From Nannocystis bainbridge (lineage in GTDB: Bacteria > Myxococcota_A > Polyangia > Nannocystales > Nannocystaceae), in contig NZ_JAQNDL010000002.1 in NCBI RefSeq assembly GCF_028368995.1, positions 737,724 through 801,723 of the forward strand: a stretch of 64,000 nucleotides of DNA. Direction: 5' to 3'. How positions within the stretch are numbered: position 1 is the first letter of the stretch; the number at the start of each line of letters is the position of its first letter. The notes beneath the pieces are model-generated. The model was not told where the DNA came from. It was given only the letters and a program-made list of their open reading frames with translations, and did no database searches. Shown here piece after piece: positions 7,728 to 44,915 of the stretch. The translations under genes were made by a program, and so were the position numbers.

Positions 7728-8081
7728 TCATGGTGCGCGGGTCAGCGAGGGCCAGGCGATCGCGGTCGCCAGGCCGAGCAGACCGAGGCCGGCGGCGCTG
7801 ACCCAGAGAGCAGGTCCTTCGGGACATGTCGTACTGGACAGGCAGACCGCGGCGGTCGGCGCGAACAGGACCAGGGCCAGCGCGAGGGCGAAGCCGAGGC
7901 CGGCCAGCGCCAGCAGACCGCCGGTGTCGACGGGCTGACGCGGACGCAGCCGGACCAGACCCTCGCCCGCATCGGACCCCGGCGCGGCTTGCTGCTTGGC
8001 GTGGGCGCGGACGAGACCCGCGAGGACAACGACGAGCCCGACGGCTGCGACGAGCGGCAGATAGTCGAGCAGGGGTCCCAT
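7728..8081 (-). CDS. possible small membrane protein (117 aa, 3 predicted TM)
   Basis: ATG 8081 directly abuts the TAG of the macro-domain gene at 8082-8084 (coupling). Hydrophobic segments LPLVAAVGLVVVLAGLV, LLALAGLGFALALALVLF, LWVSAAGLGLLGLATAIAW. The ORF contains a copy of the palindromic repeat (encoding STTCPEGP), so it may be spurious. Confidence 0.3.
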   Translation of the reverse strand: MGPLLDYLPLVAAVGLVVVLAGLVRAHAKQQAAPGSDAGEGLVRLRPRQPVDTGGLLALAGLGFALALALVLFAPTAAVCLSSTTCPEGPALWVSAAGLGLLGLATAIAWPSLTRAP

Positions 8082-8609
8082 CTACGGGATGTTCCCTTCC
8101 ATGGCGAGCTCGAACACCTCGACGTCGTCGGCGTCCTTGGCCATGAGGAAGGCGCGCAGCGGGCGTTCGCCGCGGTACACCTTGAGCTCGCTGTGGATCG
8201 CCCGCGCGGCCTCTTCGGCCGGGATCCCGAGCTCGAACGCCCCCATCAGCGGGACGGCGACGCTCGTGAAGCCCTTGACCTTGCAAGCGACCAGCACCGC
8301 CGCGGTGGCGCGCAGGACATCCTCGACCTGGACGCGACCGCCGGGGCGATCGGTGTTGGGCACGTGGATGAGGTACTTGGCCTTCATCCGGCCCGCCGGC
8401 GTGACGAACGCGGCGCCGATCGCCAGCGGGGTGTGCTCCTTCACCATGACCTCGATCTCGCGACCGGCGAGGTCGCGGATCTTGTTGGCCGGGAAGTGAC
8501 TCATCACGCCCTCGGAGTTGGTCGGACACACAAAGGCGTCGACCGCGATCTGCTCCCAGGGCAAGGTCGAGATCTGGATCTCGACGGACTCGTTGATGTC
8601 GGTGGCCAC
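8082..8609 (-). CDS. macro domain protein (ADP-ribose / O-acetyl-ADP-ribose binding or processing)
   Basis: 175 aa. VDAFVCPTNSEGVMSHF, LIHVPNTD and VAVPLMGAFELGIPAEEAARA are typical macro-domain segments. Confidence 0.8.
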   Translation of the reverse strand: MATDINESVEIQISTLPWEQIAVDAFVCPTNSEGVMSHFPANKIRDLAGREIEVMVKEHTPLAIGAAFVTPAGRMKAKYLIHVPNTDRPGGRVQVEDVLRATAAVLVACKVKGFTSVAVPLMGAFELGIPAEEAARAIHSELKVYRGERPLRAFLMAKDADDVEVFELAMEGNIP

Positions 8610-8622
8610 GCGCGGACCTTAC

Positions 8623-9114
8623 TCAAGCCTGCAGCATCGAGTCCAGCTCAGCGGCGATCGCGGACTCGGGCTCGTTGCGGACGGTCGAGAGCTCGCGGAT
8701 GACCAGGTTCCGGGCGGTCTGCAGCATCTGCCGCTCGCCGTGCGAGAGGTTCTTGGTGTGCTTGAGCAGGCTCAGGTCGCGGTAGACCTCGCCGACCTCG
8801 AACAGCGAACCGGTGCGGATCTTCTCCATGAAGCCGCGGTAGCGCCGGTTCCAGGTCTGGCGATCGCAGGGGACCTCGTGGTCGCGCAGCAGATCGTACA
8901 GCTCGTCGATCATCTCGCCGTCCGCCAGCGCCCGCATGCCGTTCTCTTCGGCCTTGGCGACCGGCACGATGATCTTCAGCCCGGAGCCGAAGACGCGCAG
9001 GTGATAGAACTGGAACGGGCGCGACTCGATGATTTTCGTCTCGAGGGCCATGACCTCGGCGACACCGTGAGTCGGGTAAACGGCCTTCTCACCAACGTTG
9101 AATCGGGGTTGCAT
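8623..9114 (-). CDS. cdnL: CarD/CdnL family transcriptional regulator (RNA-polymerase-binding)
   Basis: 164 aa from ATG 9114: MQPRFNVGEKAVYPTHGVAEVMALETKIIESRPFQFYHLRV... matches CarD_CdnL_TRCF. The size matches myxobacterial CdnL. The longer ORF-track N-terminus is Arg/Pro-rich read-through. Confidence 0.85.
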   Translation of the reverse strand: MQPRFNVGEKAVYPTHGVAEVMALETKIIESRPFQFYHLRVFGSGLKIIVPVAKAEENGMRALADGEMIDELYDLLRDHEVPCDRQTWNRRYRGFMEKIRTGSLFEVGEVYRDLSLLKHTKNLSHGERQMLQTARNLVIRELSTVRNEPESAIAAELDSMLQA

Positions 9115-12021: not shown

Positions 12022-12771
12022 GTGGGAGCGGATCGGCCCCTGTCGCCCCTGAGAGCCGGACTGGCGGTGCTGGCGGCGATCGTGATCGCGTCGGCCGCGA
12101 GCTCGGCGCGAGCGGCCGAGCCGACCTACCGCCGCTACACGGACGCGCAGGGGGTGGTCCACGTGACGCCGGTTCGCGCTGTCGGCGCGGGCAGCCGCCG
12201 CGAGGCCGAGGACATGCCCGGCAGCGGCGGCGAAGCGGGGGCGCCGAAGACGGCCGCGTCCGAGGCAGAGACGGGGGCGCCCCGCCGCGATCTGCAGGTC
12301 GAGGTCGCCGAGGCGCTGGCCGACGAGCGCTCGCGCCGGTGGGAGACGCACATCCGTGGGGCGGCGCGGCTGTATCAGCTGCCGGAGTCGCTGGTGCGCG
12401 CGGTGATTCACACCGAGAGCAACTACCACCCGGGCGCGGTCAGCAGCACCGGGGCGATGGGGCTGACGCAGCTGATGCCGTCGACGGCGCGGTTCCTCGG
12501 GGTCCAGCAGCCGTTCGACCCGCGGCAGAGCATCTACGGGGGGGCCAAGTTCCTGCGGCTGCTGGCCAATCGGTTCGGCGGCGACATGGTGCTGGTGGCG
12601 GCCGGGTATTTCTCGGGGGCCGGGGCGGTGCAGAAGTACGGCGGCGTACCGCCTCACGCGGGGGTGCGTGCGTACGTGAAGGCGGTCCTGCGCCGGTTTT
12701 ACGCGTACGAGCGGCTGCTGCAGGACGGGGCCGGCGGGGCGAGCCCCGCGCGGGCGATCGCCGGGCCGTGA
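12022..12771 (+). CDS. lytic transglycosylase domain protein (SLT family) with signal peptide
   Basis: Signal peptide LAVLAAIVIASAASSARA. The SLT catalytic region is LPESLVRAVIHTESNYHPGAVSSTGAMGLTQLMPSTA. Confidence 0.8.
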   Translation: MGADRPLSPLRAGLAVLAAIVIASAASSARAAEPTYRRYTDAQGVVHVTPVRAVGAGSRREAEDMPGSGGEAGAPKTAASEAETGAPRRDLQVEVAEALADERSRRWETHIRGAARLYQLPESLVRAVIHTESNYHPGAVSSTGAMGLTQLMPSTARFLGVQQPFDPRQSIYGGAKFLRLLANRFGGDMVLVAAGYFSGAGAVQKYGGVPPHAGVRAYVKAVLRRFYAYERLLQDGAGGASPARAIAGP

Positions 12772-32604: not shown

Positions 32605-32700
32605 GGGGGCATGTCCGAAGGGGCATGCCCTTTTGTTTATGCCCGATCGGCCATGTTCGTTCGGACATGCGCTTGCGAGCATGTCCTGAAGGTCATGGCC
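32605..32700. repeat. cluster of palindromic repeat units (GGGGCATGTCC GAAGGGGCATGCCC ... CGGACATGCGC ... GCATGTCCTGAAGGTCATGGCC) between convergent genes
   Basis: It runs from the stop of the dienelactone hydrolase gene to the stop codon of the minus-strand PepSY_TM gene. It contains GGGCATG....CATGCCC inverted repeats. Confidence 0.7.
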
Positions 32701-39442: not shown

Positions 39443-39970
39443 ATGCTCGTACACGATCTCGGATCTCTCAGCGTCGGAAGTGTCTTGACGACTTCCACGT
39501 TCACGGTGAAGCCGGTCGATCTGACCGCGCACGTGGAGTCCAGCTTCTTGGGGCAGGTGGTGGGTTGCGGCGAGGAGACGCTGTCGACCGGCAGCGTATC
39601 CGGCGGCGGCGCGCCGCAGCCGTGGGGAAGGCTTTGTCCGCTGCCGGTCGTGCTCGGCCGAGCGCTGTCGGCCCTGGCCCACAGCGAGCCGTTCCGCGAG
39701 GTCGCGCTGACGCTGCGCAGCATCAGCCGCGTGCGTCGCTTCGGTGAGATGCTGGTGGGGGAGCCGCTGACTGCGATCGCTACGGTGCGCTTCCGCAGCG
39801 GCAGAGTCCCGAACGCCACGCACGTGACGCTGGCCGTGGAGGTGCACCGCGAGAGTCAGCGCGGCCGCGTCGGCGCGACGGCGTTGAGCTTCGAGGTCGG
39901 GCTCGAGCTGCGATCGCTCCGCGGCGCGACTGCAGAGGTTCGCATGAGCGACGGCGCCGCCGCCGCGTGA
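39443..39970 (+). CDS. hypothetical protein (possible hotdog-fold)
   Basis: AAGGAGG RBS 9 nt upstream of ATG 39443. 175 aa. Weak resemblance to MaoC/thioesterase hotdog beta-strands. Confidence 0.5.
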   Translation: MLVHDLGSLSVGSVLTTSTFTVKPVDLTAHVESSFLGQVVGCGEETLSTGSVSGGGAPQPWGRLCPLPVVLGRALSALAHSEPFREVALTLRSISRVRRFGEMLVGEPLTAIATVRFRSGRVPNATHVTLAVEVHRESQRGRVGATALSFEVGLELRSLRGATAEVRMSDGAAAA

Positions 39971-40265
39971 CACGGCACCCGACCGCTCGACACTCGCGCC
40001 CGCTTCGCTCGCTTGCGTCATGGTTCTCCGACCATGTCCCAAGATGCAGTCCGCCTCGTGCCACGGTCGTGCGCGCACGCGACCTGCGCAGTGGCCCGCG
40101 GTCCGGTAACGCCTCCGGGTGGTCTTCGAGACAGGACCCGACGGGACCTACGAAGGACAGCACAGCGCGTTTCCGCGCCAGGGCCGAGATAATCTTCTCG
40201 GCCATGATCGGGTGGGCATCGGCTTGCCAAGGCGGATCCCCTGTGTGACCTTCAGTCTGCGGCGC

Positions 40266-41360
40266 ATGCTCTACGAGGACCGCTACAAGCTGATTTTGGC
40301 CGCGTGCCAGGACATTCGCCGGCATCGCGAGGAGGTCGCCAAGACGGTGATAGCGAGCCAGCTCCTCGACGCTCTCGACGTCGATGTCCCGAGCGACGCG
40401 CTCTTGTCCCACATCGTCGCCGAGTCGCTGCTGCGACGGATCGACCGTAACCTGCTGTCCGGGCGGAACTTGTACCTGCAAGTCGAGAAGCGGCCGCAGA
40501 TCGATCTGTTCACGCTGCTGCAGCGGGCGATCCCGGCCGTGCCGCAGGGCTATGCGCTCGCCAACCAGTATCTGGTCCACGCGATGCGGCAGTCGAGCAC
40601 GCCGACGCTGCTCGAGATCGGGATCGGCAAGGGCTTGCAGGTGGTCGCGCTGCTGCGGGCGCTCGCGCGCGACCCGGGGAAGATCGAGCGCATCCGCGTG
40701 ATCGCGCTCGACCCCAACCGCACGGCGTTGACCGAGGGCGTGGCGGCGATCGACGAGGTCCGCGCCGAGCTGCCGTTCGACATCGAGATCTACCCGCTGG
40801 TCAAGCTGATCGAGGTCTGCGAGGATGCCGACTACGCGCACTTCGAGGCGCTCGCCGAGGGGAGCTTGTCGATCAACGCGGCCTACACGCTGCACCACAC
40901 CACGGGCCCCGACAGCGACGCGCGCACTCGACTGCTGCGGCGGCTGCGGGCCCTGAAGCCGCGGGTGTTCACGCTGGTCGAGCCGAGCTCGGACCACGAC
41001 ACCGAGCACCTGACCCGGCGCATGCACCACTGCTGGCAGCACTTCGCGACCGTGTTCGACCTGGTCGACCGCAGCGACGCGTCGCCCGACGAGAAGTTCG
41101 CCATCAAGGAAGGCTTCTTCGGCCGCGAGGTCCGCGACATCCTCGGCACCAGCGACGCCTTCCGCTGCGAGCGCCACGAGACGCTCGAGTCGTGGCTGCT
41201 GCGGCTGAAGAAGTCGGGCTTCGTGCCGTACCCGGAGATCGAGCTCGACGTCGACCTGCCGGAGTACTGCCGCTCGTCGGTCAGCTCCGGGCTCGTGCGG
41301 CTGTCCTACCGCAGCGTGCCGATCATCGCCGTGTTCGCGTTCGCGGGGGAGGCGGGATGA
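40266..41360 (+). CDS. bacterial GRAS-domain protein (Rossmann-fold methyltransferase-like)
   Basis: 364 aa from ATG 40266. It carries GRAS-like motifs in order: TLLEIGIGKGLQVVALLRALA (VHIID-like G-x-G), RIRVIALDPN, SINAAYTLHH, LKPRVFTLVEPSSDHDTEHLTRRMHHCWQHFATVFDLVD, FFGREVRDILG (PFYRE-like), RCERHETLESWLLRLKKSGFVP (RVER/SAW-like). GTG 40119 is an alternative start. Confidence 0.75.
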   Translation: MLYEDRYKLILAACQDIRRHREEVAKTVIASQLLDALDVDVPSDALLSHIVAESLLRRIDRNLLSGRNLYLQVEKRPQIDLFTLLQRAIPAVPQGYALANQYLVHAMRQSSTPTLLEIGIGKGLQVVALLRALARDPGKIERIRVIALDPNRTALTEGVAAIDEVRAELPFDIEIYPLVKLIEVCEDADYAHFEALAEGSLSINAAYTLHHTTGPDSDARTRLLRRLRALKPRVFTLVEPSSDHDTEHLTRRMHHCWQHFATVFDLVDRSDASPDEKFAIKEGFFGREVRDILGTSDAFRCERHETLESWLLRLKKSGFVPYPEIELDVDLPEYCRSSVSSGLVRLSYRSVPIIAVFAFAGEAG

Positions 41361-41899
41361 GCGACGGGTCCGAGCCGAGCGAGCCGGTGGTCCACGGGGC
41401 GTTGATGGCCGGCTTCGCCCAGGCGTGCGTCAACCTCAACATCGTCGCTGGGCGCCGGGCCACCGCGCTGCTCGCCGACATCGACATGGGTCGGTGGTTC
41501 CCGCTCGCCAAGTGGATGGAGATCGAGCAGATGGTCGGCGAGTCGTACGCCAACGTCGAGCCGATCCGGCTCAAGCTCGGCATCGAGATGATGACGCTGT
41601 GGTACCACCGTGGCCCCGGCAAGGCGCTCATCCACCGCGGCGCCGACTTCCTGCACTTTCAGACAGGTAGCCACGGCATCGCCAGCGTGATCCGCGGCCC
41701 GCGCGGGATGGTCGGCTCGTTCGACCTCGAGGACTTCGACGCCGAGCGCGGCCACGCGGTCATCCGCTCGTCGACGCCGTTCGACAAGACGATCGAGCGC
41801 GGGGTGCTGATCGGCGGGGTGATGGCGCCCGGCGACCTCTACTACGTCGACGTGACCAACGACGGCGATCCCAACCGGCTCGTGGTGGAGTTCCACTGA
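41357..41899 (+). CDS. hypothetical protein (180 aa), translationally coupled to GRAS gene
   Basis: Its ATG overlaps the GRAS stop (ATGA), with GGAGG upstream. Balanced composition. No recognisable motif. It may be a myxobacterial paralogous family. Confidence 0.55.
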   Translation: MSDGSEPSEPVVHGALMAGFAQACVNLNIVAGRRATALLADIDMGRWFPLAKWMEIEQMVGESYANVEPIRLKLGIEMMTLWYHRGPGKALIHRGADFLHFQTGSHGIASVIRGPRGMVGSFDLEDFDAERGHAVIRSSTPFDKTIERGVLIGGVMAPGDLYYVDVTNDGDPNRLVVEFH

Positions 41900-41900
41900 G

Positions 41901-42827
41901 ATGACGCTCGACGAGATCCTCCAGGGACGAGATCCCGATCGCCTGTCCGAGCTGTCGCGCGAGGACATGCGCCGACTGTTCTGGATGTACAAGGGCCTGC
42001 TCAAGGGCGTCGAGCGCGACACCGCGTACTGGCAGGCGACCAACGACAACCTGCGGACCGCGTACGAGCGGCTCGACGAGCAGGAGCGCGAGCTGGCCCG
42101 CGCCTACCAGACCATCCGCCAGGACCTCGAGATCGCCCAGCAGGTCCAGCACGCGCTGCTGCCCAAGGACCACCCGGAGATGCTCGCGCGCTTCGAGTTC
42201 TCGGTCTACCACAAGCAGATGACCGAGGTCGGCGGCGACTACTACGACTTCTACCGCCTCCGCGACGGCTGCCACGCGATCGGCGTGTTCGACATCTCCG
42301 GCCACGGGGTGTCGGCGGCGCTGATCATGGCCTACCTCAAGGCCCAGTTGGTCCAGACGATGGAGCAGGTGTCGCGCCCGCGCGACATCGTCGAGTACCT
42401 CAACAACGCCACCGTCGGGTTCCTCCGCGAGGTCCGCCGCTACGCGACCGTCAACTTCGTCGCGTTCGGCGAGCGCACGTTCCGCTACGTGTGCGGCGGC
42501 GGCTACGGCGTGCTGGTCCGCGGCGACCAGGTCCACACGTTCAACAAGGGCGACCCGTTCATCGGCCTGCGCCGCCGCGCCTACAGCGAGTACGAGCTGC
42601 CCTTCGAGACAGGTGACGTGCTGGCGCTGTACACTGACGGTCTGGTCGAGGCTCAGGACAGCACCGGCGCCGACTACAGCACCCGCCGCCTGCACGAGCT
42701 GGTGCGCGCCAACGCCGACTTGCCGGCCAACGAGATCCTGCAGCGCTGCCTCGACGACTACGGTCAGTTCCGTCGCGTCGACGCCGACGACATCACCCTC
42801 ATCGTGCTCCGGAGGCGGGCCGCGTGA
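41901..42827 (+). CDS. PP2C-type protein phosphatase, SpoIIE/RsbU family
   Basis: The start is 2 nt after the upstream stop. N-terminal coiled-coil. PP2C core motifs GGDYYDFYRL, DISGHGVSAAL and YTDGLVEA. Confidence 0.8.
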   Translation: MTLDEILQGRDPDRLSELSREDMRRLFWMYKGLLKGVERDTAYWQATNDNLRTAYERLDEQERELARAYQTIRQDLEIAQQVQHALLPKDHPEMLARFEFSVYHKQMTEVGGDYYDFYRLRDGCHAIGVFDISGHGVSAALIMAYLKAQLVQTMEQVSRPRDIVEYLNNATVGFLREVRRYATVNFVAFGERTFRYVCGGGYGVLVRGDQVHTFNKGDPFIGLRRRAYSEYELPFETGDVLALYTDGLVEAQDSTGADYSTRRLHELVRANADLPANEILQRCLDDYGQFRRVDADDITLIVLRRRAA

Positions 42828-43339
42828 ACGACCACGAGCTCGACGACGAACCGATCACGACCAGCGTCGGCCTGACGCTGACGGTCGCGCCCATGGGCGA
42901 CGTCGGCGGCAACCTGGCGGCGACCGTCGGCGAGTCGCTGCTGGCGATGCTGACGGTGTTCTACCCGCAGGCGCTGTGCAAGAAGGCCAACGTGGTGATC
43001 ACCGAGCTGGTCCAGAACGTGATCGACAACGTCAACGATCCGGCCAGCCAGATGCGCGTCGACCTGCGCATCGACGGCGACGCGCTGCAGGTCCAGGTCA
43101 CCAACAAGGCGACGCCGGAGCAGTTCCAGGACGTCAAAGATCGCGTCGAGCAGCTGACGACCTCGACCGATCCCAAGCGCCTGTTCGCCGACACGCTCCG
43201 CGCCCGCCGCATGCAGCGGCTGCGCGGCGGGCTCGGCCTCATCCGCCTGGTGTCCGAGAACCGCTTCCGCCTGTCCGCGACTTACTCCGGCGAGCAGCTC
43301 ACGATGCAGGCGGTATTTCCTTTGCGAGGTGCGCAATGA
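42824..43339 (+). CDS. anti-sigma regulatory factor-like Ser/Thr kinase (RsbW/SpoIIAB family, HATPase_c)
   Basis: Its GTG overlaps the phosphatase stop (GTGA). N-box ITELVQNVIDN and G-box RGGLGLIRLV of GHKL ATPases. 171 aa. Confidence 0.75.
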   Translation: MNDHELDDEPITTSVGLTLTVAPMGDVGGNLAATVGESLLAMLTVFYPQALCKKANVVITELVQNVIDNVNDPASQMRVDLRIDGDALQVQVTNKATPEQFQDVKDRVEQLTTSTDPKRLFADTLRARRMQRLRGGLGLIRLVSENRFRLSATYSGEQLTMQAVFPLRGAQ

Positions 43340-43743
43340 ACGTCCTCACCTACGGCGAGATCATGGACGGCGGCGTCAGTGTGTTCCACTGCGTCGCACG
43401 CGAGGACGAGGGGAACTTCTCCCTCACGTTCTCGGGCGTGGTCCGCATCGACAACCCCTATCGCTATCTGTCGGCCCTGCTGCAGGACCTGCGCGAGATC
43501 TTGCCCAAGCGCGAGGTCCAACGCAGCGTGCTCGACTTCACCGAGCTCGAGTTCTGCAACTCCAACGGCTTCTACGTGATCATGGACATCGTCGAGCTGG
43601 TCTACCTGCTGCTGCCCGGGCCGGTGCTGGTCCGCCGCCTGCAGGAGGACGACTGGCAGCAGGAGACGCTGCCGATCCTGCTCAACCTCGACGAAGAGAC
43701 CATCGCCGCCCGCACGACCTTCGAGGACGTGCGAGAGTTCTGA
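43336..43743 (+). CDS. STAS-like putative anti-sigma-factor antagonist
   Basis: Its ATG overlaps the kinase stop (ATGA). 135 aa. The segment SVLDFTELEFCNSNGFYVIMDIVEL resembles the RsbV/SpoIIAA phosphorylation-loop region (DLSGV.F.DSSG). Confidence 0.5.
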   Translation: MNVLTYGEIMDGGVSVFHCVAREDEGNFSLTFSGVVRIDNPYRYLSALLQDLREILPKREVQRSVLDFTELEFCNSNGFYVIMDIVELVYLLLPGPVLVRRLQEDDWQQETLPILLNLDEETIAARTTFEDVREF

Positions 43744-43744
43744 C

Positions 43745-44833
43745 ATGGTGGCCCTCCTCGAGCTGGTCGAATCGATCGCGCTGCGCGTGGACGCCGAAGG
43801 TCGCGTGACCGCGGCGTCGCCCGCCGCGGCCCGCTGGCTGGCCGCGCGGACCGGGGCGCCCGGCCTCGGCGCGCTGTTCGGCGCGGCGTCGCCGGAGTCG
43901 CTGCGCGGCCTGGTCGAGAGCGGCGGCAAGGCGGTGCCCGCAGAGCCATGGCCCGAAGGACCTGTCGTATGGGACCTGTCCTTGGAGCCATCCGACGCGG
44001 TGCTGGCGGTCGGGGTGGCGATCCGCCCGGCGCGGGCGCTGGCGTCGCAGCTGGCGAGCGCGACGCTGCTCGACAAGAGCCTGGCGCTGGCGGTCCTGCC
44101 GCGTGAGGCGGCGGCGCCGCTGGGCGAGCGGCTCCAGCCCAAGGCGTACCGCGAGGCGACGGTGATGTTCATCGACGCGGTCCAGTTCTCGCGCCTGGCC
44201 GCCCGCGTCGACCCGGTCACCTGCCTCAAGCAGCTCGATTTCTTCTTCTCGGCCTTCGACCAGATCACCTCGGCGTTCGTGGTCGAGAAGCTGCGCACGG
44301 CCGGCGACACCTACGTGGCGGTGTCGGGGATCCCCCAGCGCCGCCTGTCCCACGCGGTCGACGCGACGTTCGCGGCGCTGCGCTGCGCCCAGGTGGTCGC
44401 GTCGGGGCTGACACCGATGGTCGACGAGTGGGACTGGAGCTTCCGCATCGGCCTCCACTCGGGGCCCTGCATCTCCGGCGTGCTCGGCTCGAAGAAGCCG
44501 GTCTACGACCTGTGGGGCGACACGGTCAGCGTCGCCAGCCACGTCGAGCGCATCGGCCAGCCCGACTCGGTGTGCGTGTCGGGGGCCGTCCGCCAGCTGA
44601 TCGAGCCGTTCTTCGCGCTCGAGTTCATGCAGACGACGGTGACCCGCAGCGTCGGCGAGATCGAGGTGTTCGCGGTCCGCGGGCTGCTCCCCGAGCTGCA
44701 GGCCGACGGCCAGGCGCTGGTCGCCAACGCGGAGTTCGCCGAGCGCTACGAGTCGCGCTTCGGCACGCCGTGCCCGGCCGCCGCGCTCGAGGCGCTCGGG
44801 GTCGAGCTCGGACAAGGGCTCGAAGACTTCTGA
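43745..44833 (+). CDS. class III adenylate/guanylate cyclase with ~130-aa N-terminal domain of unknown function
   Basis: Start 2 nt after the upstream stop. Cyclase motifs ATVMFIDAVQFSRL, KLRTAGDTYVAVSG, IGLHSGPCISGVLGSKKPVYDLWGDTV. The N-terminal domain contains a degenerate palindromic-repeat copy (43946-43992, encoding WPEGPVVWDLSLEP). Confidence 0.8.
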   Translation: MVALLELVESIALRVDAEGRVTAASPAAARWLAARTGAPGLGALFGAASPESLRGLVESGGKAVPAEPWPEGPVVWDLSLEPSDAVLAVGVAIRPARALASQLASATLLDKSLALAVLPREAAAPLGERLQPKAYREATVMFIDAVQFSRLAARVDPVTCLKQLDFFFSAFDQITSAFVVEKLRTAGDTYVAVSGIPQRRLSHAVDATFAALRCAQVVASGLTPMVDEWDWSFRIGLHSGPCISGVLGSKKPVYDLWGDTVSVASHVERIGQPDSVCVSGAVRQLIEPFFALEFMQTTVTRSVGEIEVFAVRGLLPELQADGQALVANAEFAERYESRFGTPCPAAALEALGVELGQGLEDF

Positions 44834-44847
44834 GCGGTGGGATGGCT

Positions 44848-44915
44848 GATCGGGCATGTCCGAAGGGGCATGCCCGTCGGGCAATGTCGTCGAGGACATG
44901 TCCTCGAGTTCAGGC
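44848..44915. repeat. palindromic repeat cluster (GGGCATGTCC GAAGGGGCATGCCC ... GGACATGTCC) 3' of the cyclase gene
   Basis: GGGCATG...CATGCCC inverted repeat plus a GAGGACATGTCCTC perfect palindrome. Between convergent gene ends. Confidence 0.7.

Follow-up and report, generated by a model that had tools for sequence, protein, structure and literature searches.

A conserved six-gene operon of Nannocystis bainbridge that may join a GRAS/H-NOX-like input to a SiaABCD-like partner switch

The genome of Nannocystis bainbridge carries a compact block of six genes, here called g1 to g6, within a stretch of 64,000 nucleotides (nt) that we refer to as the window (contig NZ_JAQNDL010000002.1, positions 737,724 to 801,723). 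The block begins with a gene for a bacterial member of the GRAS family and ends with a gene for a class III cyclase homologue, and its features are as follows, in window coordinates and with protein lengths in amino acids (aa).

g1, 40266..41360, + strand, 364 aa: GRAS-family protein, predicted S-adenosylmethionine (SAM)-dependent methyltransferase
g2, 41357..41899, + strand, 180 aa: H-NOX-fold sensor protein without heme ligands, belonging to no Pfam or NCBIfam family
g3, 41901..42827, + strand, 308 aa: N-terminal coiled-coil transducer (about residues 12-90) joined to a PP2C/SpoIIE-type Ser/Thr phosphatase
g4, 42824..43339, + strand, 171 aa, GTG start: divergent GHKL-fold protein (DUF6272/slr1658 type), predicted kinase and partner of g5
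g5, 43336..43743, + strand, 135 aa: SiaC/SpoIIAA-fold switch protein with candidate phospho-acceptor Ser76
g6, 43745..44833, + strand, 362 aa: PAS-like N-terminal domain and class III cyclase homology domain with a degenerate active site

An initial reading made from the sequence alone had proposed six same-strand open reading frames (ORFs) here, and all six are present on the plus strand at those positions, with lengths divisible by three and with start and stop codons as first read. The start/stop overlaps that it described are found in the sequence (ATGA at 41357-41360, GTGA at 42824-42827 and ATGA at 43336-43339). The two short spacers that it gave as 2 nt exist, and each measures 1 nt (TGA-G-ATG at 41897-41903; TGA-C-ATG at 43741-43747). 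An in-frame GTG at 40245, seven codons upstream, is a possible start of g1, because the 96%-identical protein of Nannocystis pusilla has 371 aa rather than 364. With about 70% GC, the window holds long spurious ORFs in every reading frame. Since g1 to g6 have length-matched homologues whose order is kept in dozens of genomes, they are real genes and not chance ORFs. The GRAS proteins of N. pusilla, N. exedens, N. punicea and N. radixulma are 95-97% identical to g1, and no paralogue of g1 to g6 and no second cyclase was found elsewhere in the 64-kb window.

Conservation of the block was examined by a profile-guided scan of one genome per species, which yielded 79 GRAS loci (cited below by L numbers), all scored with the six window proteins. 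Synteny was counted over the 46 loci that have a GRAS protein of this clade (at least about 40% identity) and at least 2.7 kb of downstream sequence. Without exception among the 46, g1 is followed by g2, g3, g4 and g5, with order and strand unchanged. The 46 loci span 37-73% GC and are labelled either Myxococcota (Nannocystis, Polyangiales and Sorangium-like) or Spirochaetota (lower-GC metagenome-assembled genomes, MAGs), so that the arrangement first read as a single block is syntenic well beyond the Myxococcota. Spacing is tight in distant representatives as well: in L001 and L003, g4 and g5 overlap by 4 nt and the other genes lie 3-25 nt apart, and the gap between g5 and the cyclase gene is only 0-12 nt in distant loci, compared with 1 nt in the window. 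A reciprocal search from g5 homologues recovered the same block in two of three cases.

The sixth position is more variable. A cyclase gene follows g5 in 29 of the 46 loci and is absent from 15, with two undecidable. Among the loci that lack it, one clade (L031, L036, L044, L054 and L089) has a Ser/Thr kinase gene adjoining g5, others have unrelated genes, and in L022 (11569-12867) a PilZ-like ORF and a DUF4118-GGDEF diguanylate cyclase fill the position. Genes g1 to g5 therefore form the conserved core, and the cyclase is its commonest but exchangeable sixth gene. Distant GRAS homologues (<37% identity) come from Firmicutes, cyanobacteria, Burkholderiales, Bacteroidota, Vampirovibrionales and one archaeon; near these, no g2, g4 or g5 was found, hidden Markov model (HMM) profiles included, with L074 as the sole exception.

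The assignment of g1 to the GRAS family is borne out by a match to Pfam GRAS (PF03514) of 118 bits against a cut-off of 27 (E 5.8e-34; HMM positions 41-328 of 374). A profile built from 33 bacterial g1 homologues aligns with the plant DELLA protein RGA over residues 10-362 (E 4e-31), and also end to end with the GRAS domains of plant SCARECROW and SCL3. Bacterial GRAS proteins are the presumed ancestors of the plant DELLA and SCARECROW regulators, and to our knowledge none has an experimentally known function. Zhang, Iyer and Aravind reportedly predicted in 2012, by computation, that they are methyltransferases (as cited in PMC4279901). The motif (E/D)117-I-G-x-G-x-G-x-Q, typical of SAM binding by class I methyltransferases, is invariant among the 33 homologues (G119, G121 and G123), as is an acidic residue, D/E149, at the end of strand 2. 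Both features fit the published prediction; the SAM-binding motif of g1 is intact, and the protein is predicted from it to be a SAM-dependent methyltransferase. The homology with plant GRAS proteins is full-length, and the bacterial Rossmann G-x-G-x-G sits at the position of the plant VHIID motif. The plant proteins, however, are nuclear co-regulators that have lost the glycine motif, whereas g1 is a stand-alone cytoplasmic protein encoded in a phospho-signalling operon. A quite different setting is seen for a distant stand-alone homologue (33% identity) of Paenibacillus prosopidis (L004, about 8001-9101), whose neighbours encode an aminoglycoside phosphotransferase, an erythromycin esterase and a glyoxalase. 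That context is one of small-molecule modification and resistance, quite unlike the signalling operon.

The second gene had been listed as an unknown of 180 aa. Its length stands, and its identity can now be revised, as structure prediction and fold comparison give it the fold of an H-NOX domain. We rejected a heme or nitric oxide (NO) sensor function for it, because the proximal His is not conserved and the heme-propionate motif Y-x-S-x-R is absent. Specifically, His100 of g2 is present in just 21 of 40 sequences and the strand that carries Y-x-S-x-R in H-NOX proteins reads (H/R)-S-T-T-P-F, where both equivalences were judged from sequence and secondary structure, without superposition. No match to Pfam HNOB was obtained with g2 or with the g2 relatives scanned. 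Compared with soluble guanylate cyclase and with the bacterial H-NOX proteins that act with histidine kinases or diguanylate cyclases, g2 thus differs in its lack of an HNOB match, of a conserved proximal His and of Y-x-S-x-R, and also in its partner, which here is a PP2C phosphatase. On these sequence features, heme or NO sensing by g2 is unlikely.

Searched exhaustively with a profile, a set of 1.84 billion representative proteins contained 211 relatives of g2, in which the domain mostly occupies residues 1 to about 180 of a multidomain protein. Domain scans of 77 of these relatives identified HATPase_c in 39, HisKA in 31, GGDEF in 26, a receiver domain in 20, a protein kinase in four and a class III cyclase in two, and the g2-type domain was N-terminal and sensor-like in all 77. 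The same domain stands at the head of histidine kinases, GGDEF proteins and Ser/Thr kinases in at least 200 representative clusters. Neither Pfam nor NCBIfam has a model for it, and it constitutes a separate, so far unannotated family of sensor domains. Association with GRAS is not general, as the genes upstream of two fused histidine kinases do not encode GRAS proteins. In a long-read MAG (L017, 7859-9795), the g2 homologue is split over three frames, either by indel errors or because it is a pseudogene.

The locus L074 offers a view of how these parts may be connected. It comprises a GRAS gene, a gene for an alpha/beta-hydrolase and a gene for a three-part fusion protein, and has no GHKL, STAS or PP2C gene. 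In the fusion, residues 8-182 correspond to g2 (40% identity, E 4e-46). The helical N-terminus of g3 is recognizable at residues 205-290 (E 3e-11), which also show a weak match to the coiled coil (HNOBA) of soluble guanylate cyclase, and the PP2C domain of g3 is replaced by a cyclase domain that is canonical throughout. Because L074 joins g2, the g3 helix and a cyclase, we regard g2 as an input sensor. Its N-terminal position in multidomain signalling relatives, together with this fusion, argues that the domain is a modular sensor. Within the operon, g2 most likely acts through the coiled coil of g3, to judge by the sequence match of the fused segment. GRAS would stand at or upstream of the sensor, as g1 and g2 are translationally coupled and GRAS stays with g2 in L074, where the phospho-switch genes are missing. 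The earlier proposal that the GRAS protein and its 180-aa neighbour are the input side gains strength from the H-NOX fold of g2 and from the domain fusions. In L074 (1268-3672), the GRAS protein has a C-terminal TerB-like extension and is followed by the hydrolase (Abhydrolase_6), whose N-terminus presumably resembles plant methylesterases. A methyltransferase paired with an esterase would be in keeping with a small molecule that is methylated reversibly.

The phosphatase assignment of g3 is upheld by its match to Pfam SpoIIE (E 4e-28). Its best NCBIfam match is the C-terminus of SiaA (E 3.2e-20, below the cut-off), and the catalytic and metal-binding motifs GGDYYD, FDISGHG, YTDG and DDxT are conserved in 51 sequences. 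For g4, the description as an RsbW-like kinase has to be corrected: the protein is only a remote GHKL relative of the DUF6272/slr1658 type, scores below all curated family cut-offs and is without a G1 box. It matches HATPase_c_2, HATPase_c and DUF6272 weakly in Pfam, below their curated cut-offs, and its best NCBIfam match is slr1658_superfam (39.3 bits against a cut-off of 100; E 4.5e-10). Among 20 orthologues, DUF6272 is matched in 17 and HATPase_c_2 in six. The N-box residues E61 and N65 and the G2-box GGLGL are invariant. Sequence and profile searches of the PDB with g4 gave nothing significant and did not retrieve SiaB, RsbW or SpoIIAB.

The protein encoded by g5 had been called a STAS protein, which is right at the level of fold, since its predicted structure matches SiaC and SpoIIAA, but not at the level of sequence, where no Pfam match to STAS or DUF1987 was found. 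Its best NCBIfam match is the slr1659 superfamily (25.4 bits against a cut-off of 100), and PDB searches with the g5 sequence and profile gave nothing significant, with SpoIIAA appearing only at an E of about 1. The conserved residues N75-S76-N77 at the N-terminus of helix 2 mirror N67-T68-S69 of SiaC. A hydroxyl residue occupies the position equivalent to SiaC T68 in at least 90% of g5 homologues, and the single exception is the phosphomimetic Asp. By this analogy, Ser76 is a candidate phospho-acceptor.

The sixth gene encodes, as first read, a class III cyclase domain preceded by an additional one at the N-terminus. The former matches Pfam Guanylate_cyc (PF00211, E 1.9e-36), with no GGDEF, and has AC5, AC8 and AC9 as its PDB matches; the latter matches PAS_4 weakly (E 0.04). 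Catalytic residues were read from an alignment to mammalian AC5 and 30 orthologues. Both metal-binding Asp residues and the substrate Asp are kept in g6, which reads TVSVASHVE where the canonical sequence is TVNVASRM. The change of the transition-state Asn to Ser and of the Arg to His or Gln is common to all cultured Nannocystis, the Nannocystis MAGs and L046, while the full K/D/N/R set of adenylate cyclases is present in 17 block-linked orthologues of other lineages and in the L074 fusion. Judged by these residues, most orthologous cyclases are canonical adenylate cyclases. A class III cyclase homodimer without the transition-state Asn and Arg is expected to be strongly impaired, and because g6 has lost both, the Nannocystis protein is probably a weak or inactive cyclase, which makes its synthesis of cyclic nucleotide monophosphates (cNMPs) doubtful. 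The Ser/His pair is similar to what the C1 half of the mammalian enzyme has at its non-catalytic positions. Perhaps g6 is a pseudo-enzyme that binds nucleotides, or else a C1-like subunit dependent on a partner cyclase.

The ratio of nonsynonymous to synonymous substitution rates (dN/dS) for g6 is 0.23-0.29 among Nannocystis species, against 0.03-0.19 for g1, g3 and g5, and is the highest or near-highest of the six genes; values for distant pairs (L001, L014) are unreliable, since synonymous sites are saturated and biased at this GC content. Because it is still under purifying selection, g6 is a maintained gene. The view that the cascade ends in cNMP synthesis thus fits most orthologues, but not readily the window itself, where g6 is without key residues, nor the roughly one-third of loci in which the cyclase is absent.

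Partner switches that regulate enzymes and not sigma factors have been described, namely SiaABCD, HsbA-HsbD and the BgrV system, all of which drive GGDEF cyclases (PMC8457831). In the SiaABCD system of Pseudomonas aeruginosa, unphosphorylated SiaC leaves SiaB and activates SiaD, and phosphorylation of SiaC at T68, the site that contacts SiaD, blocks this activation (PMC8457831, PMC7647112). Genes g3 to g6 run closely parallel to that system, with a PP2C phosphatase, a small GHKL protein, a SiaC-fold switch and a cyclase that has an N-terminal domain and a helical linker. The sequence-only reading knew of no description of such an architecture, which is correct for the class of the cyclase and for the input pair but not for the switch as such. 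Several differences from SiaABCD should be noted. The output is a class III cyclase homology domain and not GGDEF (except in L022, where the swap makes the block still more SiaABCD-like, GGDEF being SiaD-like); g3 is soluble with a short coiled-coil N-terminus, whereas SiaA has a membrane and HAMP sensor part; g4 belongs to DUF6272 and has no detectable sequence similarity to SiaB; SiaC is in Pfam DUF1987 and g5 is not, so the likeness is one of fold only; and there are two extra input genes, for the GRAS protein and the H-NOX-like sensor.

Like the block, the classical RsbU/RsbV/RsbW-sigmaB and SpoIIE/SpoIIAA/SpoIIAB-sigmaF switches comprise a SpoIIE-family PP2C, a partner of GHKL fold and a SpoIIAA-fold protein in which the Ser that caps helix 2 is conserved. 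They differ from it in that no sigma factor gene is present here, g5 falls under the Pfam STAS threshold and g4 is without the G1 box. A further likeness is to Slr1658/Slr1659 of Synechocystis, as these two adjacent-gene families are the best NCBIfam matches of g4 and g5; with 39 and 25 bits, far under the cut-off of 100, the window proteins are remote relatives at best. A mutant phenotype is on record for Slr1658, as cited in a passage of PMC7555055. In full-text literature we found no partner switch with a class III cyclase as its output, nothing that ties DUF1987 or DUF6272 to an adenylyl cyclase, and no description of this GRAS neighbourhood, which Zhang, Iyer and Aravind (2012) may mention.

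Taken together, these comparisons lead us to favour, with a probability of roughly 55%, a conserved cytoplasmic signalling operon in which a SiaABCD-like partner switch is combined with a new GRAS/H-NOX-like input and a different class of cyclase. In such an operon, g1, as a predicted SAM-dependent methyltransferase, would make or modify a small ligand, or would methylate g2. The heme-less H-NOX-fold sensor g2 would dock on the N-terminal coiled coil of g3 and set its phosphatase activity. Phosphate on Ser76 of g5 would be added by g4 and removed by g3, and unphosphorylated g5 would leave g4 and bind an effector, which in most lineages would be the adjacent PAS-like class III adenylate cyclase g6. 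The protein contacts, the phosphorylation, the methyltransferase activity, the ligand and the direction and sign of regulation are what we infer here. More tentative is the idea that the input makes what it senses, so that a small molecule made or methylated by the GRAS protein is read by g2 and gates a phospho-switch that controls cyclic AMP (cAMP) synthesis; we would sooner bet against this idea than on it.

Several observations weigh against a scheme of this kind, and some of them favour other explanations. No cyclase follows g5 in about 15 of the 44 decidable loci, and g6 therefore cannot be the sole output. In the window, moreover, g6 is substituted at three of six catalytic positions (specificity Lys to Arg, transition-state Asn to Ser, and Arg to His). 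The functional unit might then be g1 to g5 only, with a target encoded elsewhere (for example a sigma factor, some other enzyme, or a Ser/Thr kinase that g4 or g5 would hold or release), and the cyclase an often co-located, independently regulated neighbour that in Nannocystis is a decaying or repurposed pseudo-cyclase. The Ser/Thr kinase or unrelated genes found in place of the cyclase, the PAS-like domain that would give g6 a sensor of its own, the loss of the catalytic Asn and Arg in the Nannocystis clade and L046, and the high dN/dS of g6 all speak for such a unit. We nevertheless think it unlikely, because the cyclase is the commonest sixth gene (29/46) and lies within 0-12 nt of g5 even in distant loci, because g6 is still under purifying selection, and because L074 joins the same sensor directly to a cyclase and L022 swaps in another nucleotide cyclase. 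Doubt also attaches to g4, whose kinase activity is uncertain on its sequence. The protein lies below every curated family cut-off, has no sequence match to SiaB and lacks the G1 box DxGxG, in which a conserved Asn94 replaces the Asp. The G1-box Asp binds adenine in GHKL proteins. If g4 were a pseudokinase, there would be no phospho-switch at all, g5 would be a constitutive adaptor in a static scaffold and the PP2C would act on some other substrate; the failure of PDB profiles to reach SiaB, RsbW or SpoIIAB would agree with this. It is improbable, however, given the invariant N-box E/N and G2 GGLGL of g4, the retention of a hydroxyl at the T68-equivalent position of g5 in at least 90% of homologues with Asp as the sole exception, and the intact PP2C that is always encoded alongside.

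The input side can be questioned on similar grounds. A g3-g4-g5 trio occurs without GRAS or g2 in Chondromyces apiculatus, and the g2-type domain occurs without GRAS in fused histidine kinases; a step from GRAS to g2 is therefore not obligatory. One could reverse the direction altogether and take the methyltransferase as the regulated output, with methyltransferase, GHKL(DUF6272) protein and STAS protein as the true conserved triad; the GHKL/STAS-like pair, along with the PP2C, would then govern methylation or be governed by it, and g2 and g6 would be accessory sensors. A second block containing a UbiE-type methyltransferase, a DUF6272 protein and a STAS protein does lie beside GRAS in L001, L012, L013 and L015, and in C. 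apiculatus it is co-linear with g3-g4-g5 where GRAS and g2 are missing. Against this, L074 has GRAS and the g2-cyclase fusion but no GHKL, STAS or PP2C, g1 and g2 are translationally coupled, and g2 is N-terminal in all 77 multidomain relatives examined, all of which fits a flow of signal from the GRAS/g2 pair to effectors and leaves the reversed arrangement only a slight chance.

What is new in the SiaABCD-like operon is the class III cyclase as the proposed output of a partner switch and the two-gene GRAS/H-NOX-like input; the principle of the switch was already known. The non-sigma partner switch of the SiaABCD type would be extended by it from cyclic di-GMP (c-di-GMP) to class III (cAMP) cyclases. 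The operon also puts one clade of bacterial GRAS proteins in a defined and reconstitutable cascade, which is their first testable signalling context, and cultured hosts are at hand in Nannocystis exedens DSM 71, N. pusilla and N. punicea. Two uncharacterized families are brought into view, the heme-less H-NOX-like sensor domain and DUF6272, and the ligand of the former would matter far beyond the operon, in histidine kinases, diguanylate cyclases and Ser/Thr kinases. In addition, one operon family presents a natural series of canonical cyclase, degenerate cyclase, GGDEF and no cyclase, which is useful for the study of output exchange and of the origin of pseudo-cyclases. If the input indeed makes and senses its own small molecule, bacterial GRAS proteins would gain their first assigned function, and a new family of H-NOX-like sensors, present on hundreds of histidine kinases and diguanylate cyclases, its first class of ligand. 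It would also be the first case of a class III cyclase driven by a partner switch, and would point to part of a small-molecule signalling circuit as the ancestor of the plant GRAS family.

Some homologous loci carry additional genes. PilZ domains normally bind c-di-GMP, and in a number of loci one follows the class III cyclase: an ORF of about 122 aa directly after the cyclase gene is a conserved seventh gene of the lower-GC, Spirochaetota-labelled loci and is absent from the lineage of the window. PilZ genes of this kind are found in L018, L022, L025, L026, L028, L032-L034, L041, L042, L050, L053, L058 and L088. In L088 (1638-3755), an extra membrane-bound 7TMR-DISM class III cyclase is encoded just upstream of GRAS, so that two cyclases flank the core. 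At a contig end of N. exedens (utg4), L008 is a near-identical second copy of the whole locus relative to L007. Its g6 is out of frame, and a duplication in the assembly is a more probable origin than true paralogy.

The second methyltransferase module consists of a 190-290 aa protein, the UbiE-type methyltransferase, a DUF6272/HATPase protein and a STAS protein. It is divergently oriented next to GRAS in the Nannocystis MAG loci L001 (4816-7898, - strand), L012, L013 and L015; in four MAG loci it sits between GRAS and the homologue of the ORF that begins at 39443 in the window. In C. apiculatus DSM 436 (L087, 220-7411), it precedes g3-g4-g5 and runs co-linearly with them; a single 305-aa protein unites its GHKL and STAS parts, and there is an additional dCache-HAMP-PP2C protein. 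From the second module and the arrangement in L087, it follows that methyltransferases recur beside these switch pairs.

Around the block, the flanking genes encode an AAA ATPase, SmpB, a ComF-like phosphoribosyltransferase and a DUF218 protein, and no sigma factor, cNMP receptor or defence gene was found among them. The absence of a sigma factor gene from the block, remarked upon at the outset, therefore holds for its surroundings as well. We rejected a defence-system function, as a PADLOC scan gave just a weak generic PycC match to the cyclase domain. The ORF upstream of the block (39443-39970) has a strong AAGGAGG Shine-Dalgarno sequence, and its conservation (E 1e-44 to 1e-101) is confined to genomes and MAGs of Nannocystis. 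It had been called hotdog-like, a label that finds no support, for the ORF has no Pfam family match, and it lies outside the conserved block. Two non-coding features border the six genes.

39971..40265, + strand: upstream intergenic region, likely the promoter region of the operon (295-nt gap 5' of g1)
44852..44907, no strand assigned: palindromic repeat elements just 3' of the g6 stop (inverted repeats I2-I4), a possible transcript end or repetitive extragenic palindromic (REP)-like element

A scan of the upstream region for a sigma-70 consensus gave no match, and none for a canonical intrinsic terminator did so either, both scans being uninformative at this GC content and for this phylum. 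The palindromic motif GGGCATGYCC occurs in 11 copies in the window, against 0.34 expected, at 12210, 20376, 32607-32630, 46838, 46902 and 53863 and within 44852-44907. It looks like a REP-like intergenic element, and two copies of it, together with a perfect 9+9 palindrome, lie directly 3' of the g6 stop, where it might double as the end of the transcript.

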